From a virus (Duplodnaviria; Heunggongvirae; Uroviricota; Caudoviricetes), in IMG/VR virus record IMGVR_UViG_2778261696_000006: DNA of 28,988 nt; one strand, given 5' to 3'. Below the pieces are notes generated by a model that saw nothing but the letters and a program-made list of their open reading frames with translations, did not search any database and was not told the origin of the DNA. Both the position numbers and the translations under genes were made by a program. Of the stretch, positions 173 to 9,471 are shown piece by piece (within the stretch, counting starts at the first letter, position 1; each line of letters starts with the position of its first letter).

Positions 173-1222
173 TTATGCAACCTCTGCCGCCACATTGTCG
201 CCAACATACAGCGATAACGGATTGAGGGTTACAGCTTGTTCAAGGTGGTCAGGAGCAAAGTGCGCATACTTCATTGTTTCTCGAATATTGGCATGTCCGA
301 GAATTTTCTGCAGCACCAGTATATTCCCTCCGTTCATCATAAAATGCGCACCAAAAGTATGACGCAAAACGTGCGTCTTCTGCCCTTCCGTCAATTCAAT
401 ATTCGTTAGTTTGAGCATCTTTTTAAACTCCTGATAGCAGGGTTTAAACATTCTGCCTTGACGTACGGACAACTCGTCGTACAGCCATTTAGGAATAGGA
501 ACTGTGCGATTCTTCTTACCTTTGGTTTTGGTGAACGTTAGTTTATATGGAGAAAGTTGAGGTCGGGTCAATCTCTCCGCTTCCCCCCATCGAGCGCCGG
601 TTGCAAGGCACACCTTAACAATCATGGTGAGGTCTTCTTTGCCGTATTGCTCGCAGGCTCGAAACAGCTCCGGGAGCTGAGACAAAGTTAGCCAGGACAT
701 TTCTTTCTCAGCTTCTTTGAATACTCGGATCCCATCAAGTGGATTGGGTAGGCTCCACTCCCCTAACCGGCGGAGCTCATTAAACACTGCTTCTAGGTAT
801 TGTTGTTCGCGATTGACGGTTATAGGTTTGGCGATCCATTTCGAGGGGTCTTTATGATAACCATTGTCTATTTCACCACGTAATCGACGGTCACGATAAT
901 GAGCCCAGTCTTTCGCGGTAAGGCGAGATGCAATCGGGTCGCCAAGTCCATTACATACGATTTGAAGCTTTGCAAACCTCGACTTACTGGCGACTAACGC
1001 TTGACCGTGCAAATTGTGCCAAAGCTGAATAATCTCGCTTAAGCGTCGGCGGTCTTCTTTCTTGCCGAGCCACGGCTTATCTTCACTCTCGCTTTTGGTA
1101 AATGCTTCAAATGCCTCGGCCTCACCTTTGGTATTGAACTGCCGACGTATACGCCGTCCTTCTCGACCATTTGGATAGAGTTCACACAACCATTTTCCAC
1201 TTTTTTGTTTACTTACAGTCAT
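173..1222 (-). CDS. int: Phage integrase, tyrosine recombinase (P2/186 Int family)
   Basis: 349-aa ORF with ATG start; C-terminal HVLRHTF...MKYAH catalytic motifs typical of tyrosine recombinases; position at prophage end next to repressor. Confidence 0.9.
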   Translation of the reverse strand: MTVSKQKSGKWLCELYPNGREGRRIRRQFNTKGEAEAFEAFTKSESEDKPWLGKKEDRRRLSEIIQLWHNLHGQALVASKSRFAKLQIVCNGLGDPIASRLTAKDWAHYRDRRLRGEIDNGYHKDPSKWIAKPITVNREQQYLEAVFNELRRLGEWSLPNPLDGIRVFKEAEKEMSWLTLSQLPELFRACEQYGKEDLTMIVKVCLATGARWGEAERLTRPQLSPYKLTFTKTKGKKNRTVPIPKWLYDELSVRQGRMFKPCYQEFKKMLKLTNIELTEGQKTHVLRHTFGAHFMMNGGNILVLQKILGHANIRETMKYAHFAPDHLEQAVTLNPLSLYVGDNVAAEVA

Positions 1223-1246: not shown

Positions 1247-1585
1247 TTAATTACAAAGGGCTGTAGCGGCATCAATCACCGGTGAAATTGAAATTTTAAC
1301 GCCGTCATACTCAGGGTCATCCTTCCATACGTCATCTAAGTTAGACCCCTCCAGCTTTCCTGATTTAACAGCATCTACCGCCATGCCATTCAGAGGATAT
1401 CTATCATCAGTTTTGATGTCATACACAAAAGCATAAGCACGGTTAACACATGATACCTTTGCCTTTTCAAAGGTTAGAGGCCACTTGTCACCATATGCAG
1501 CGCCGTCTATCTCTTTAAACTTCTCAGCGGCTATGGCTGAGGAAGAAAGTGCAATGCAGACTATCGCAAATATAAACTTTTTCAT
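1247..1585 (-). CDS. Small secreted/periplasmic protein of unknown function (moron between cI and int)
   Basis: 112-aa ORF, N-terminal signal peptide MKKFIFAIVCIALSSSAIAAE, two Cys in mature part, strong RBS AAGGAG 6 nt upstream of ATG; resembles small YebY/DUF2511-type periplasmic proteins from memory only. Confidence 0.6.
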   Translation of the reverse strand: MKKFIFAIVCIALSSSAIAAEKFKEIDGAAYGDKWPLTFEKAKVSCVNRAYAFVYDIKTDDRYPLNGMAVDAVKSGKLEGSNLDDVWKDDPEYDGVKISISPVIDAATALCN

Positions 1586-1594
1586 TACTGCTCC

Positions 1595-2440
1595 TTAAAC
1601 ATGCTTTTCCAAAGTAAAAATAACCGCACCTGATGGTGTGATATCTGAAATATTACATTCAAACTCAGCAGACTTATTTGATAACCTGACCTTTCCGCCT
1701 GGCAACCTGATTACGTCAAAAACATCGAGTGCGCCATCAATACCAATAAGCCAGCGACCATTTCCTATCTTCGAGTTAGAACTATCAACAAGCCAAGATG
1801 TGCTCACACCATCAATAAACACTAAATCATCAGTATTTGATGGAACCATAGATATATCAGGAGTCCAGCGTCCGATATCTTTGAGTTCGCCCGCCTCGAG
1901 GCGGCACTTTCTAATCGTTAAAGCATTTGCCGGTTCACCATCATTACTGTTACGCATCTGGCCTTTTCCGGTTGATAACCATTCTAACGATACGCCAGTA
2001 TCAAGGGCGCAAGTGACAACCACGTCACCGGGGAAAAAATCGCGTCTAACCCAAGTGCTTATAGTGCCGGAAGATATACCTAATAAATCTCCAAGCTCTT
2101 TTTGCAGAGTAAAACCATACGCATCGAGAATCCGACGCAGAACCGCCCTCCCTCCATTTGCCATGATTTCATCATAGAGTTGCTTACCTTTAAGCTTAGT
2201 TTTCACCACTTCAAATCTTGCATTTGCAAGCTCACCATTAATTAGCCATCGCAGGTCAGCTCCAGTATCAAGAGCACACTCAACGAAAACGTTGCTAGGG
2301 ATTACGTTTCTAGCAAGCCAGCTACTCACGTTGTTTGCATGTATGCCAAGCCTTTCGGCTAGTTCCTTTTGCTGCTTAAAGCCGTATGCAGAAAGGACAC
2401 GTTCCAATGCGGCAGACGCATTAACATCATTTTTAGACAT
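1595..2440 (-). CDS. cI: 186-type CI immunity repressor with tandemly duplicated N-terminal HTH domain
   Basis: Track ORF 1595-2629 trimmed to internal ATG at 2440 (MSKNDVNA...); two copies of motif AYGF-QKEL-LGI...W...CALDTG-L-WL-G, C-terminal region resembles 186 CI C-terminal domain (...LPGGKV...FEC...). Confidence 0.75.
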   Translation of the reverse strand: MSKNDVNASAALERVLSAYGFKQQKELAERLGIHANNVSSWLARNVIPSNVFVECALDTGADLRWLINGELANARFEVVKTKLKGKQLYDEIMANGGRAVLRRILDAYGFTLQKELGDLLGISSGTISTWVRRDFFPGDVVVTCALDTGVSLEWLSTGKGQMRNSNDGEPANALTIRKCRLEAGELKDIGRWTPDISMVPSNTDDLVFIDGVSTSWLVDSSNSKIGNGRWLIGIDGALDVFDVIRLPGGKVRLSNKSAEFECNISDITPSGAVIFTLEKHV

Positions 2441-2543: not shown

Positions 2544-2572
2544 ATAATGCGATATGTCAGATGCAAAATCAA
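2544..2572 (-). promoter_or_regulatory. Putative leftward lysogenic promoter (pL-like), convergent with pR
   Basis: On minus strand TTGATT (2567-2572) -17 bp- CATTAT (2544-2549); would give face-to-face transcription with the pR candidate as described for 186. Confidence 0.25.
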
Positions 2573-2925
2573 TCTCGACGCACGACTCGCAAAACTCACA
2601 AAATCAAACTGTGCTGCTAGATCCAACACAGTTTGATGCCATCGTTACCGCCATGCTGCCAGCTCTACAGACAATGATTCGCTCCGCTATGTCAGACACG
2701 ATGACTGTGAAAGACTTCGCCGCTACTCGCGGTGTTAGCGAGCGTCTGGTCTGGCAATGGCTCGATGAGGGAGTCCTTCTCAAAGCTCCGACCAAAGACT
2801 TTTCCAACAAAGAGGAAGCTGCTAAACGAAGCCGAACCCTCGTAAATGTAAAAGCATGGCGCGATAAGCTGACTCAACAAGCGATTGATTGTCGCTACAT
2901 CGACCAGCGCACCGCTCTTAACTGA
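2554..2925 (+). CDS. Apl/Cox-like HTH protein (putative excisionase and switch regulator); start uncertain
   Basis: 123-aa ORF, RBS AGGAG 9 nt upstream, HTH-like segment TVKDFAATRGVSERLVWQWLDEGVL; first gene of rightward early operon, position equivalent to 186 apl / P2 cox. Confidence 0.5.
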   Translation: MSDAKSISTHDSQNSQNQTVLLDPTQFDAIVTAMLPALQTMIRSAMSDTMTVKDFAATRGVSERLVWQWLDEGVLLKAPTKDFSNKEEAAKRSRTLVNVKAWRDKLTQQAIDCRYIDQRTALN

Positions 2926-2957
2926 ATTTGATTATGCAAGTTAGAGGGAATTTAACC

Positions 2958-3467
2958 ATGTTTGATTTTCAGGTTTCCAAACATCCCCACTATGACGAAG
3001 CATGCCGCATTTTCGCACAGCGTCACAACATGGCGAAGCTGGCCGAGCGTGCAGGTATGAACGTTCAAACGTTACGTAACAAGCTCAACCCGGAACAGCC
3101 TCACCAGTTCACGCCGCCTGAATTGTGGCTGCTGACTGACCTGACCGAAGACTCAACCCTCATTGATGGTTTTTTAGCGCAGATTCACTGCCTACCATGC
3201 GTGCCGGTTAATGAGTTGGCTAAAGACAAATTGCAGTCTTATGTCATGCGCGCAATGCGTGAACTCGGCGAACTGGCGAGCGGCGCGGTATCTGATGAAC
3301 GTCTGACCACTGCCCGTAAGCACAACATGATTGAAAGCGTTAACTCCGGCATTCGCATGTTGTCATTGTCGGCTCTGGCGCTGCATGCACGTCTGCAGAC
3401 TAATCCAGCTATGTCGAGCGTGGTCGATACCATGAGCGGTATTGGCGCATCGTTTGGTCTGATTTGA
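2958..3467 (+). CDS. cII: 186-type CII regulatory protein
   Basis: Track ORF trimmed to ATG at 2958 (MFDFQVSKHPHYDEACR...), matches remembered 186 CII N-terminus and length (169 aa); RBS AGAGGGA upstream. Confidence 0.8.
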   Translation: MFDFQVSKHPHYDEACRIFAQRHNMAKLAERAGMNVQTLRNKLNPEQPHQFTPPELWLLTDLTEDSTLIDGFLAQIHCLPCVPVNELAKDKLQSYVMRAMRELGELASGAVSDERLTTARKHNMIESVNSGIRMLSLSALALHARLQTNPAMSSVVDTMSGIGASFGLI

Positions 3468-4494: not shown

Positions 4495-6717
4495 TTGGCT
4501 GTTCAATTCGCTTATCCGTGGAACGTTCCACGGTCGGCAATCTCCAGCCCATACCTTACTTATGCGCAACAGCATCGCCGCGACCGTATGTTCGCGGCTT
4601 TGCTGCATGCAAAAAAGGTGCTTTCTCTCCAGCCCGACTGCGTGCGGTTAGATGTTTATCGCACTGCTGCGGTGCTGGAGCAAAATCAGGGTAGTCAACG
4701 AGCCAATGCATTTTTAATCAGCTTCTGCAAAAAGGCATTGCCGCGTCTTGAACTGGTCGCAAAAAAATACGAATGCGCTGGTATCAACAGCAAGGTATCA
4801 ACCGCTGTTTTTGGAAGTCATTTTGATACTCAGCAAATGCAATATCTGTCGTCACGCATGGTTAATATGGTCGCCCGATATAACCGTCTCCCGGACATGT
4901 CGCGCGCTGATGTTGACCTGTTGGCCGCTGATATTGCTAATTTCATTCGTGGTGAACTTGCCAACATTAATGACCACGGATTCGGCGAGCTTAAAACGCT
5001 GTACACCTGGTATATTCGTGCTGGCTTTATTTCCCTCCAATTTAACGTTATCCCACCACATTGGGAGCGGGTTGAAAAAAAATATGTCGGTGCGGATGAA
5101 ATCGCACCGGCTATCGCCAAAATGTTTAACGATGGGTGGTGGCGCGGTCGTTTGCGCCGTGTTGCAGCTACGTGGCGCGAACACCTGCAAATTGCAGTCG
5201 GCAACGTCAGTAAGAAAAAAAACACTTACGCGAGTAAAAACTGCGTGACTGACTGGCGTGAACAAAAGCGCCGCACTCGTGAATTTCTCAAAGGTCTGGA
5301 TCTCGAAGACGAAGACGGCAACCGTATCAGCCTGATTGAAAAATATGATGGCTCAGTTGCTAACCCTGCGATTCGCCGCTGTGAGCTCATGACCCGCATT
5401 CGTGGGTTTGAAAACATCTGTAATGAGCTCGGTTATGTCGGTGAGTTTTACACTCTAACCGCGCCGTCAAAATATCACGCCACGACTAAAGCCGGTTACC
5501 GTAACAGCAAATGGAGCGGTGCCAGCCCGGCTGACACGCAAAACTATCTAACCGGTATCTGGGCGCGTATCCGTGCCAAACTACATCGGGAAGATGTCCG
5601 TATTTTCGGTATTCGTGTCGCCGAGCCTCATCACGACGGCACTCCACACTGGCACATGCTGATGTTCATGCTGCCGGAAGATGTTGAATATGTTCGCTCC
5701 ATCGTCCGTAAATACGCATGGAAAGAAGACCGCCACGAACTGAAAAGCGATAAATCCAAAAAAGCACGTTTCCACGCCGAGTCCATTGACCCGGAGAAAG
5801 GCAGTGCAACCGGCTATGTTGCTAAATACATCTCAAAAAATATCGACGGTTATGCTCTCGATGGTGAAACCGATGATGAAAGCGGTGAGCTGCTGAAAGA
5901 GACAGCCCCCGCCGTTTCAGCATGGGCTGCGCGCTGGCACATCCGTCAGTTTCAGTTTATTGGTGGTGCGCCGGTGACGGTTTACCGTGAGTTGCGTCGC
6001 CTCGCTGATACCGAAACCGCGCGCGGTCTGAGCGTTGAGTTTGCCGCCGTCCATGATGCCGCCGACGCTGGTGACTGGGCTGGTTATGTTAATGCTCAGG
6101 GTGGGCCGTTTGTCCGTCGCGATGATTTACAGGTGCGCACACTGTATGAACCGCGTACCGAGCTTAATCAGTACGGTGAGGAAACGGTATGTATTAAGGG
6201 GGTCTACGATTCCTCCATAGGTGCAGGGAGTCCGATTTTAACCCGGCTCACTCAGTGGAAGATTGTTCCGAAGCGTGCTGTTGATTTGGCCGTTGACCTT
6301 CAGGACGGCAAAGCCGTCCCTCGGAGTTCTGTCAATAACTGTACGGGAAGCGAAAGCGATCCACCGATACTGGATTTAACAAAACCACTGAGTCGGCGTG
6401 AAAGACGAGAATTGACCAACCGACTCAGGAAGCAAAAGCCAGCAGCACGGCGAAAACTCATCCACGGAACGGATGAGCAAAACGCAGCTATAGCTAAAAC
6501 TATCGACGAGATACATCTGACAACCGGCATTAATATCAGCCGGGGCGAAGCCCTGCACCTGATGGCCGGTGGTAAAAGTTGTTTTGATGGTAAATGGCTA
6601 CGCGGAACGGCCAAAGGAGAAATATTTTCCGCAGCACCATCGCATGAGGCTAAAGCTCGGAAAATCCTTAATCGTGTTGCGGCGATGGCTGAAGCATCAA
6701 AACCAATACATGAGTAA
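4495..6717 (+). CDS. A: Replication initiation protein A (rolling-circle HUH endonuclease); start is TTG 4495 or a downstream ATG
   Basis: 740-aa ORF containing HUH motif (TPHWHMLMF) and catalytic tyrosine motif YVAKYISKNIDGYALDG as in P2/186 gpA. Confidence 0.9.
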   Translation: MAVQFAYPWNVPRSAISSPYLTYAQQHRRDRMFAALLHAKKVLSLQPDCVRLDVYRTAAVLEQNQGSQRANAFLISFCKKALPRLELVAKKYECAGINSKVSTAVFGSHFDTQQMQYLSSRMVNMVARYNRLPDMSRADVDLLAADIANFIRGELANINDHGFGELKTLYTWYIRAGFISLQFNVIPPHWERVEKKYVGADEIAPAIAKMFNDGWWRGRLRRVAATWREHLQIAVGNVSKKKNTYASKNCVTDWREQKRRTREFLKGLDLEDEDGNRISLIEKYDGSVANPAIRRCELMTRIRGFENICNELGYVGEFYTLTAPSKYHATTKAGYRNSKWSGASPADTQNYLTGIWARIRAKLHREDVRIFGIRVAEPHHDGTPHWHMLMFMLPEDVEYVRSIVRKYAWKEDRHELKSDKSKKARFHAESIDPEKGSATGYVAKYISKNIDGYALDGETDDESGELLKETAPAVSAWAARWHIRQFQFIGGAPVTVYRELRRLADTETARGLSVEFAAVHDAADAGDWAGYVNAQGGPFVRRDDLQVRTLYEPRTELNQYGEETVCIKGVYDSSIGAGSPILTRLTQWKIVPKRAVDLAVDLQDGKAVPRSSVNNCTGSESDPPILDLTKPLSRRERRELTNRLRKQKPAARRKLIHGTDEQNAAIAKTIDEIHLTTGINISRGEALHLMAGGKSCFDGKWLRGTAKGEIFSAAPSHEAKARKILNRVAAMAEASKPIHE

Positions 6718-6777
6718 TTCATATCCATATCATGCACATACAGCAATCGCTCTATTCGTTTTTTTTCTTCCCATCTT

Positions 6778-6811
6778 TTGCCAATACGTGCTACTGTATA
6801 AATATACAGTA
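6778..6811 (+). promoter_or_regulatory. SOS-regulated promoter: -35 TTGCCA (6778-6783) with LexA box TACTGTATAAATATACAGTA (6792-6811)
   Basis: Perfect 9-bp dyad arms CTGT-N8-ACAG matching LexA consensus, overlapping the -10 region 20 nt upstream of ATG 6831. Confidence 0.75.
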
Positions 6812-6830
6812 ACCCTGTGGGAGGGATTTC

Positions 6831-7013
6831 ATGGTTGGCGAACATTTCAGCCGAACGCAGCAAAAGTGGGCTTGTGTGCAATTTATTGCCGAGGTATCTC
6901 TGATTGCAAACTGCAAGCCATCAGACTTAAAGCTCGCGCTCACTCTCATTGCAGACCTAGCAAACAGCGAAAATAACGAAACCGAAGATGATAATTTTTA
7001 TAAGGCTGATTAG
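6831..7013 (+). CDS. LexA-controlled small protein, candidate Tum-type antirepressor
   Basis: 60-aa ORF with RBS GGGAGGG, immediately downstream of LexA box; positional analogy to the 186 p95/tum operon; no sequence-level confirmation possible here. Confidence 0.4.
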   Translation: MVGEHFSRTQQKWACVQFIAEVSLIANCKPSDLKLALTLIADLANSENNETEDDNFYKAD

Positions 7014-7016
7014 ATT

Positions 7017-7247
7017 ATGAGAATCAATATCACGTTGGATAAAGAGCAAAAATTAGGGCAACAGATCATTGATGCTTTTCAGAATGAAATAACACATCGA
7101 GTACAATGCGTTTTTCCTGCAACAAAAGTTAACGTTAAGAAAGGGTCAATGACTGGTGTAGAGGCTATCGGATTCGATAAAGAGGCGGACAGAGAAACAT
7201 TAGGCAGCATATTACAAGAGATTTGGGAAGACGATAGCTGGCGTTAA
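7017..7247 (+). CDS. dinI: DinI-family protein
   Basis: 76 aa, MRINITLDKEQ...LQEIWEDDSW resembles DinI family (MRIEV...ILQETWE); second gene of the LexA-box operon. Confidence 0.75.
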   Translation: MRINITLDKEQKLGQQIIDAFQNEITHRVQCVFPATKVNVKKGSMTGVEAIGFDKEADRETLGSILQEIWEDDSWR

Positions 7248-7265
7248 ACAGAATAACCGTGCTGG

Positions 7266-7329
7266 CGCAAAAACTAGCTTTTTGCGTCGGCGGGGTTGAG
7301 TAACGAGCCCACGAGGCTTAAGTCCTGCC
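7266..7329 (+). repeat. Structured repeat copy R1 (hairpin plus GGCGGGGTTGA...AACGAGC...ACGAGGC...CCTGCC)
   Basis: Hairpin CGCAAAAA-CTAGC-TTTTTGCG followed by conserved GC-rich core; about 80 percent identical to copy at 7672-7733. Confidence 0.6.
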
Positions 7330-7446
7330 TTTCAAAATTTCTCAATGTGCTATTGATGACACCCCCATGATTAATGAGGCATGACCTGAGATGGTTTTAT
7401 AGTGGCGTTTTGACGGCACTGATTAAAATTCATTGAGGGTGATAAT

Positions 7447-7656
7447 ATGCATCGACTACCAGGTGAAATTCCGCAGCACAAAACTAAATGCATCAAACTG
7501 ATGGCCATCGTTCATCGTCTGCAGCAGATAATGGTCAATGAGAATTTGACACCCGCCGAGCTGGTCGGGTGTGCCGAAATAGTCAGGGATAATTACGGCA
7601 AGCTGGATAGCATCAGCAAGCCGACACATTACTCACCGCCACCACGTCGACCATAG
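7447..7656 (+). CDS. Orphan 69-aa protein flanked by R1/R2 repeats
   Basis: ATG with RBS GAGG about 8 nt upstream; no recognisable motif; lies in the A-to-cos accessory interval. Confidence 0.45.
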   Translation: MHRLPGEIPQHKTKCIKLMAIVHRLQQIMVNENLTPAELVGCAEIVRDNYGKLDSISKPTHYSPPPRRP

Positions 7657-7671
7657 ATAACGCCGCCGGAG

Positions 7672-7733
7672 CTGAAACTCGCTTTCAGGTCTGGCGGGGT
7701 TGAACAACGAGCTACGCGAGGCGTTAGCCCGCC
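7672..7733 (+). repeat. Structured repeat copy R2 (hairpin plus GGCGGGGTTGA...AACGAGC...ACGCGAGGC...CCCGCC)
   Basis: Hairpin CTGAAA-CTCGC-TTTCAG then conserved core; outer GGCGGG/CCCGCC can pair (R1 keeps pairing via a G-U). Confidence 0.6.
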
Positions 7734-8424: not shown

Positions 8425-9471
8425 TTATTCCGGGTTGTCGAGTGTGTACTCTTTGAACCTGATGACCTCCATACCGAGCCAGTCGTTTACCTCCCTGAAC
8501 CTATCCTGCAGGGGTGACAGCTCATTACGCACAAATACCTTTGCCACCTTCTCAACGTCACCGAGTGAACCGATATTCTCGGGCTTGCCGCCCATGAGCT
8601 GGAACGGCACGCGGTGCGCGTCCATCAGGTCGGCGGCGCTGGCTTTCTTAATGTTGAAAAAGTCATCCTTTGTGGCGACCTCGCTCAGTGGCACGATTTT
8701 GATGCCGTCCGGTTTTCCGCCGGGGGCGTAGAAAAACAGGTTCTTAAAGTTGCCGAGTCCCTTCGAGTTACGCATCGCCTCGCGCAGCGATTCGACGTCG
8801 GTCGCACTTTGCGCCGGGTCAGTCACATACATGATGTAGCCTGCGTGCGCGCCGTTCTGATAATACTTGCGGCGGAACAGCGTCGCGGATTCATTCAGCC
8901 AAGCGGAATTAAGCGCGCTGAGATATTCCGGCAGACCGTAAATCTCCTGATTAATGTCGGGCTCCAGCAGGTGAAACACGGTATCAGGCGCGAACTCGTG
9001 CGGCTGGGTGAAGTTTTCCACAAACCAGAAAATCGAATCGTCGACTCCGCGTCGGGTGTATTTGGCTGGCGAGGCCAGCAGTTTGATTAACTGGCCGGTG
9101 ACGCTGTGGCGCTGCTCAAGAAAGGCGTTACCGAATACCAGATAATCGAGCGCAAAGCGGCTGAAATCCTGACGGGATAACAACGGGTGCGGAATGTAGG
9201 TGCTCGCGAGCACGTTACGCTTAACATAAATTGGCGAGCTGTGATGCACGGCAGAGCGCAGGCTCTTTGCCAGCCCTGAGAAGCTGACCGGCGGCTCGTA
9301 CCATTTGCCGTTACTGATGCACTCGACGTAATCCAGAATGTCGCGCTTATCGAGTACCGGCACCGGCTCGCCGAAGGTGAACGCTGTCGTTTTTGGCGGT
9401 GCGCTGGCGGTCAGTTGTTGTGGTTTGCTGGCCTTTTGTGCGTTGGCTTTACGGGATTTTTGTTTACCCAT
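8425..9471 (-). CDS. Q: Portal protein (P2 gpQ)
   Basis: 348 aa, size and position match P2 Q; stop/start overlap with P upstream on same strand. Confidence 0.9.
   Translation of the reverse strand: MGKQKSRKANAQKASKPQQLTASAPPKTTAFTFGEPVPVLDKRDILDYVECISNGKWYEPPVSFSGLAKSLRSAVHHSSPIYVKRNVLASTYIPHPLLSRQDFSRFALDYLVFGNAFLEQRHSVTGQLIKLLASPAKYTRRGVDDSIFWFVENFTQPHEFAPDTVFHLLEPDINQEIYGLPEYLSALNSAWLNESATLFRRKYYQNGAHAGYIMYVTDPAQSATDVESLREAMRNSKGLGNFKNLFFYAPGGKPDGIKIVPLSEVATKDDFFNIKKASAADLMDAHRVPFQLMGGKPENIGSLGDVEKVAKVFVRNELSPLQDRFREVNDWLGMEVIRFKEYTLDNPE

Follow-up and report, generated by a model that had tools for sequence, protein, structure and literature searches.

A LexA-controlled tumA-tumB operon as the probable SOS induction switch of a 186/PSP3-type Escherichia coli prophage

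Introduction

Is a 60-aa ORF, placed between a LexA box and a DinI-like gene, the antirepressor through which a prophage would respond to DNA damage? This question is raised by the stretch of DNA analysed here (28,988 nt, hereafter the window), for which a first-pass annotation had proposed, from position, that the ORF is a Tum-type antirepressor. In coliphage 186, induction relies on the SOS derepression of the promoter p95 and on the anti-CI factor Tum (PMC7708051), which binds CI reversibly and blocks its binding to the operators (cited in PMC3121763 and PMC7708051). Tum resembles a fusion of an antirepressor with DinI (Lemire et al. 2011, PMC3121763), and in Fels-2 and PSP3 tum is split by a stop codon (PMC3121763). 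The same paper relays a personal communication from Christie, according to which the upstream gene of PSP3 has antirepressor activity. In E. coli HS, either the deletion of tum or a lexA(Ind-) allele abolishes the induction by mitomycin C of the P2-like prophage DuoHS (PMC12055606).

Results

The operon follows the replication gene of a 186-like prophage

The gene content of the window is that of a 186-like (Eganvirus-type) prophage of E. coli (Table 1). Positions 6700-7700 are 100% identical to E. coli EC12, and positions 6700-7300 are 99.3% identical to phage vB_EcoM-613R3, whose record labels its 60-aa gene "UV induction of prophage". Salmonella phage PSP3 aligns to positions 6700-7063 with 94% DNA identity. 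The SOS operon lies immediately downstream of the gpA replication gene (which ends at 6717), as it does in 186 and PSP3. Searches for Rfam families and tRNAs over the entire window gave no matches, and we thus found no hidden RNA element in the region. Two minus-strand ORFs that are antisense to the operon (6300-6881 and 6791-6949) lacked support and were set aside.

Table 1. Features of the window that are relevant to the SOS operon and its surroundings.
Feature	Position	Strand	Basis or remark
Integrase	173-1222	-	
DUF2511 gene, between int and cI	1247-1585	-	
cI, 281-aa PSP3-type immunity repressor	1595-2440	-	Pfam PF07022 in two stretches, and PF16452
123-aa ORF at the Apl/Cox position	2554-2925	+	
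CII (CP76) homologue	2928-3467		
gpA replication endonuclease	4495-6717		
p95-type promoter: -35 TTCCCA (6768-6773), 18-nt spacer, -10 TACTGT (6792-6797)	6768-6797	+	alignment to annotated 186 p95
TTGCCA, alternative -35 hexamer	6778-6783	+	would pair with AAATAT/AATATA at 6800-6806
LexA operator (SOS box) over the -10 hexamer	6792-6811	+	20-mer, PWM, PSP3/186 alignment
Shine-Dalgarno GGGAGGG before the 60-aa ORF	6819-6825		strong
tumA, putative 60-aa Tum-type antirepressor	6831-7013	+	PSP3 TumA identity, Tum homology
tumB, 76-aa DinI-like protein	7017-7247	+	counterpart of the 186 Tum C-terminal half (Tum95.5)
Hairpin right after tumB	7254-7298	+	RNA folding; place of 186 terminator t95a
69-aa ORF, PSP3 gp37 type	7447-7656	+	phrog_11386, E = 1e-46
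DUF2188 ORF, 103 aa	8075-8386	+	E = 7e-18
Likely portal gene, assigned by position	8425-9471	-	

Some of the surrounding genes deserve mention in their own right. A homologue of the DUF2511 gene occupies the same place between int and cI in PSP3 (gp28), SW9 and Midge, and is named a putative periplasmic protein in the record of Midge; it is probably an accessory gene expressed in lysogeny. The 123-aa ORF at the Apl/Cox position had no match in Pfam, and the PSP3 protein at this position has been described as a singleton without detectable domains (PMC3448106). The DUF2188 ORF lies between the end of the SOS operon and the portal gene, where one would expect to find the cos site.

A LexA box lies over the -10 hexamer of a p95-type promoter

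The sequence TACTGTATAAATATACAGTA is present once in the window and had no matches in 100 dinucleotide-preserving shuffles. It differs from the textbook LexA consensus TACTGTATATATATACAGTA at one central position (19/20 identical) and is a perfect CTGT-N8-ACAG with complementary 9-bp arms, in which only the central AA is not self-complementary. It has the form expected of an E. coli LexA operator, i.e., CTGT-N8-ACAG within a 20-bp AT-rich palindrome close to TACTGTATATATATACAGTA. The bare CTGT-N8-ACAG core arises by chance in 28% of the shuffles, so that the weight of the identification is carried by the full 20-mer. We scored the site with an approximate position weight matrix (PWM) made of 29 E. 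coli LexA sites, and obtained 29.4 bits, compared with 27.8 for the best training site, 8.9 for the next-best site in the window and 20.7 for the best site in 200 shuffled windows. The box is identical in PSP3 (20/20), deviates in 186 in the central spacer only and coincides, in the alignment, with the protein_bind feature given for LexA in the record of 186. The LexA dyad that the first-pass annotation had placed at the -10 region was thus recovered there, although it is separated from the ATG of the 60-aa ORF by 19 nt and not by the 20 nt that had been given.

The promoter can be placed by comparison with the one annotated in 186. The GenBank record of this phage describes p95 as a -35 hexamer TTCACA, a spacer of 18 nt and a -10 hexamer TACTGT. 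The block CTTC(C/A)CA(T/C)CTTTTGCCAATACGTGCTACTGTAT is near-invariant across the window, PSP3 and 186, with flanks that diverge, and is largely retained in diverged E. coli copies. It had been proposed that the -35 hexamer is TTGCCA. This hexamer is indeed present and conserved (186 and the E. coli copies have it, and PSP3 has TTATCA instead), but it is not the -35 hexamer annotated for 186 p95, whose equivalent in the window is TTCCCA, 10 bp further upstream and also conserved in relatives. A generic sigma-70 scan of the region flagged neither pairing, the hexamers being weak matches to the consensus, and we therefore relied on an alignment with p95, as annotated in 186, to locate the promoter. 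Whichever of the two -35 hexamers is chosen, the -10 hexamer lies under the LexA box. The near-invariance of the promoter and operator DNA relative to annotated p95 supports the proposal that the 60-aa ORF would be driven by a p95-like promoter repressed by LexA.

Sensitive comparisons relate the 60-aa ORF to the N-terminal part of Tum

The product of the 60-aa ORF is identical to TumA of PSP3 at 59 of 60 positions. The GenBank record of PSP3 (AY135486) annotates tumA with the note "similar to 5' end 186 tum; UV induction of prophage", and that of 186 states for tum "expression repressed by LexA; inhibits CI DNA binding". A BLASTP comparison of the 60-aa ORF with 186 Tum returned no alignment. 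We did not take this as a sign of non-homology, because three more sensitive tests agree on a block of 30-40 residues. A Smith-Waterman alignment of TumA with residues 1-72 of Tum pairs TumA 15-56 with Tum 13-52 and has a score of 60 (z = 9.4), which none of 5000 shuffles reached (21.4 +/- 4.1). The family phrog_1993 matches both TumA (E = 1.1e-31) and residues 1-61 of Tum (E = 1.7e-23). Finally, hhalign matched an alignment of 34 sequences of the TumA family to Tum 1-72 in the same register (E = 3.5e-5). Judged by these comparisons, the 60-aa ORF and the N-terminal antirepressor region of 186 Tum are homologues. Together with the identity to PSP3 TumA, they give substance to what had been a candidacy by position, and the comparison with Tum that the first-pass annotation had suggested is significant by Smith-Waterman, even if BLASTP is blank.

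There is no TumA family model in Pfam or NCBIfam, and no relative of TumA was found in the PDB. AlphaFold2 predicts helices at residues 4-25 and 30-51 followed by a disordered acidic tail, with a moderate mean pLDDT of 69.7, so that the fold may be a two-helix hairpin with an acidic tail. In PHROGs, the Tum N-terminal superfamily is split into at least four families (1993, 698, 8554 and 37919), all of them described as of "unknown function".

The DinI-like gene is 186-like and tumA is PSP3-like

The ORF of tumB begins 3 nt beyond the TAG stop codon of tumA. The presence of a DinI-like gene at this distance, which had been noticed from the sequence, is confirmed by a match of TumB to the Pfam family DinI (PF06183) that lies above the gathering score (E = 1.7e-17, 63.9 bits for a cut-off of 24.2) and covers positions 2-62 of the 63 of the profile. 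TumB also aligns over its full length with the structure of E. coli DinI (1GHH, E = 4.5e-8) and is matched by phrog_189 (E = 6e-30). It is 70% identical to residues 71-146 of 186 Tum, with Met1 opposite the internal GTG (codon 71) that is annotated as the start of Tum95.5. The PSP3 record describes tumB as "similar to dinI and 3' end of 186 tum". With the NCBIfam model NF007893, TumB scores 51.4 bits for a cut-off of 111, and orthology with the chromosomal DinI is not supported. From these comparisons, TumB is best described as a DinI-like phage paralogue that is closest to the C-terminal half of 186 Tum. It may bind RecA filaments, as suggested by the conserved acidic C-terminal helix that aligns with that of 1GHH.

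TumB of the window is 45% identical to its PSP3 counterpart. By sequence affinity the operon is thus a mosaic, with a PSP3-like tumA and a 186-like tumB. The DNA similarity to PSP3 (94%) ends about 45 nt into tumB, at a junction around 7056-7063, and the similarity to many E. coli prophages (99%) also ends about 45 nt into this gene. Such a junction points to a recombination event in the conserved 5' part of the DinI-like gene.

The hairpin that follows tumB has a folding energy of -26.9 kcal/mol (z = -5.5, 0/200 shuffles) and no clean U-tract; a terminator scan flagged an inner stem followed by TTTTT within it. The PSP3 stretch aligned to it bears substitutions and seems, by eye, able to form a hairpin. 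This element is likely a (partial) terminator or a 3' stabiliser. Further downstream, the 69-aa ORF lies in the same place as PSP3 gp37 and a hypothetical protein of 613R3, and occupies the place of 186 orf97. The scan found no promoter-like site in 7300-7447, and this ORF is possibly expressed by read-through from the operon, its membership in which is uncertain. Its DNA matches E. coli regions (77-89%) annotated as DUF3850 or "meiotically up-regulated 80 protein".

tumA is widespread, under purifying selection and sometimes alone

The TumA family comprises 208 clusters at 90% identity, nearly all of 60-61 aa, which are spread over many enterobacterial genera and several members of which are named TumA in UniRef. 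The promoter and tumA are present in 81 of 5,426 complete E. coli genomes; in the 60 E. coli records listed, tumA is annotated as "hypothetical protein" (RefSeq/PGAP). Seven sequenced phages of the collection also carry the gene, PSP3, Midge and SW9 among them. Diverged E. coli copies show dN/dS values of 0.05-0.13 at dS of 0.6-1.9 and retain the LexA box. Hence, tumA is under strong purifying selection.

Three E. coli loci carry the LexA box and tumA followed by non-coding DNA, with no DinI-like gene (FORC 064, 473-655; P13-6, 472-654; MRSN346647, 477-659; positions within each locus). In P13-6, a hairpin and a T-run follow tumA. FORC 064 has an intact tumA next to a gpA pseudogene. The existence of such loci indicates that the LexA box and tumA form the minimal module, tumB being accessory.

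TumA co-occurs with one type of CI repressor

The CI of the window has the domains Phage_CI_repr (PF07022, in two stretches) and Phage_CI_C (PF16452), and the Pfam search found no Peptidase_S24 domain in it. A repressor devoid of this autocleavage domain needs an antirepressor for SOS induction. The protein is 73% identical to the CI of PSP3 and 32% identical to that of 186. Among 50,697 phage records, TumA is encoded in 10, and these are exactly the 10 that have a full-length CI with 67-91% identity to the one of the window; the remaining 141 CI matches have at most 39% identity. We infer that this CI is the target of TumA.

In PSP3-type CI the N-terminal HTH is duplicated, as revealed by an internal repeat, whereas 186 CI has a single HTH. 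When six phages were compared, the identity was 47-94% for HTH1, 92-97% for HTH2 and 74-93% for the C-terminal domain of CI, the end of which is almost invariant, like HTH2. TumA is 98-100% identical in phages whose CI varies in HTH1. Phages that share an HTH1 variant have near-identical DNA in the 60 nt upstream of cI, and this stretch is diverged from one variant to another. A 2011 survey credited PSP3 CI with a "longer C-terminal domain" (PMC3448106); contrary to this description, the extra length corresponds to the N-terminal duplication.

Discussion

A model for the switch and its alternatives

We conclude, with a probability of roughly 0.87, that the operon is the LexA-controlled tumA-tumB SOS induction switch of a 186/PSP3-type E. 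coli prophage. In the lysogen, the host LexA would sit on the SOS box over the -10 hexamer of the p95-type promoter and silence tumA-tumB. Upon DNA damage, activated RecA would lead to the self-cleavage of LexA and the promoter would fire. TumA would then bind CI, which RecA could not cleave, and block its binding to the operators, thereby releasing the lytic promoter pR. Translation of tumB, starting so close to the stop codon of tumA, is probably coupled, and TumB, as a DinI-like protein expected to bind RecA filaments, would most likely tune the SOS signal and be dispensable for induction itself. Sequence features, homologies, selection on tumA and co-occurrence with one type of CI are what the analysis established; by analogy with the relatives, LexA would bind the box, TumA would interact with CI, the prophage would be inducible and TumB would modulate RecA filaments.

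Several other readings were weighed. The 60-aa ORF might be the dead N-terminal remnant of a broken fused tum, in a prophage that is non-inducible or induced otherwise, which would fit with the differences from 186 at the junction (an indel of about 35 nt and a stop codon), the lack of TumA-Tum similarity in BLASTP and the hypothetical-protein label given by PGAP to the E. coli copies in the 60 records listed. Yet, the ORF is preceded by a strong Shine-Dalgarno sequence and a conserved LexA box and is found in sequenced phages such as PSP3, Midge and SW9 (seven in all), a split-type tum is functional in E. coli HS (PMC12055606), and the PSP3 upstream gene is reported as an antirepressor in PMC3121763. 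The low dN/dS of tumA (0.05-0.13) at near-saturated synonymous sites and the size of its family (208 clusters, mostly of 60-61 aa, in many enterobacterial genera) led us to reject this reading, which we regard as the least credible of all. It is also very improbable that the operon is mainly a host-directed "moron", with the DinI-like protein as its cargo and the 60-aa ORF as a leader or an unrelated gene rather than a CI antirepressor. LexA-controlled DinI homologues are common prophage cargo, e.g., in the Gifsy prophages (PMC3121763), and TumB has a clear DinI fold signature, but it is tumB that is missing from several E. coli prophages with a LexA box and tumA, and tumB that is exchangeable (45% identity to PSP3 TumB, versus 98% for TumA), whereas tumA shares ancestry with the antirepressor half of Tum and strictly co-occurs with one CI type.

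A different kind of alternative accepts that TumA induces the prophage and places its action elsewhere: it could target the extra HTH of CI, disrupt CI oligomers or promote the degradation of CI. The cognate CI has a duplicated N-terminal HTH that 186 CI lacks, TumA and HTH2 are both almost invariant when HTH1 is variable, and the common core of TumA and Tum spans only 30-40 residues, all of which would be compatible with another mode of action. Homology nevertheless favours a conserved, reversible binding of CI that blocks the operators (PMC3121763, PMC7708051), and we consider another mode improbable. Our preferred reading thus remains that of an SOS switch in which TumA would keep CI from its operators. 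Within it, one may speculate that the invariant HTH2 is a docking or sensor module for TumA, that HTH1 sets immunity specificity and that tumB is an optional, exchangeable add-on that tunes the SOS response, an idea that we hold to be rather unlikely. If the docking to HTH2 were true, one type of TumA could induce heteroimmune prophages of the group in trans.

Implications for the annotation of prophages

The split tumA-tumB SOS operon is already known, since it is annotated in AY135486 and discussed in the literature, and accounts of its biology exist for 186, PSP3, Fels-2 and E. coli HS. The duplication of the HTH in CI, the loci with tumA alone and the mosaic tumB are minor points and only mildly new. 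The analysis nevertheless suggests that this prophage, and similar ones in some 80 of the 5,426 complete E. coli genomes, would sense DNA damage by a LexA-controlled antirepressor and not by the cleavage of the repressor. It is also of value for annotation: tumA is labelled "hypothetical" and lacks a Pfam or NCBIfam model, so the SOS-inducibility of P2/186-like prophages is easily missed.

Comparison with known systems

The systems that resemble the operon differ in how much of it they share. E. coli DinI (1GHH) is comparable with TumB alone, and the alignment of the two spans the whole of TumB and takes in the acidic C-terminal helix ILQE-WE; DinI is encoded by a chromosomal gene, and TumB stays below the cut-off of the NCBIfam equivalog. 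The Gifsy pairs dinI-gfoA and dinI-gftA (PMC3121763) also associate a LexA-repressed DinI homologue with a small antirepressor acting against a non-cleavable repressor. In contrast to the window, dinI comes first and the prophages are lambdoid (PMC3121763); in our reading, their antirepressor and repressor families are unrelated to those described here.

The prophage DuoHS of E. coli HS is closer in layout, with a LexA box that precedes a separate antirepressor gene of about 60 aa and, a few nucleotides downstream, a DinI-like gene. Its tum encodes 62 aa and is followed 10 nt on by the DinI-like gene, a split arrangement that we deduced from the primers used for the deletion (preprint PMC11195241) and from a matching IMG/VR locus. 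DuoHS Tum belongs to phrog_698 and TumA of the window to phrog_1993, and their direct comparison by hhalign is weak (E = 0.088); we tie the two proteins together because both are related to the N-terminus of 186 Tum.

PSP3 (AY135486, Eganvirus PsP3) shares with the window the position after gpA, the 20-bp LexA box, the gap of 3 nt between tumA and tumB, the family of long CI with two HTH and the homologous 69-aa ORF downstream. It differs in TumB, which is about 45% identical while that of the window is 186-like (70%), and in the first HTH of CI, which is another variant (53% identical).

The p95-tum-orf97 region of 186 (U32222) has in common with the window the LexA-repressed promoter, the core of Tum at residues 13-52, the Pfam families of CI and a hairpin at the position of t95a, a partial terminator in 186. 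Unlike the window, 186 encodes orf97, which is absent here, and a CI with a single HTH (32% identical), and both modules are fused in one ORF of 146 aa; in a DNA alignment the two junctions differ by an indel of about 35 nt and a stop codon. In 186, too, the DinI-like module is made as a separate protein, by way of the internal GTG start of Tum95.5. Since tumB starts at the point that corresponds to this internal start, the split operon of the window amounts to the fusion of 186 and its internally initiated product, laid out as two genes.
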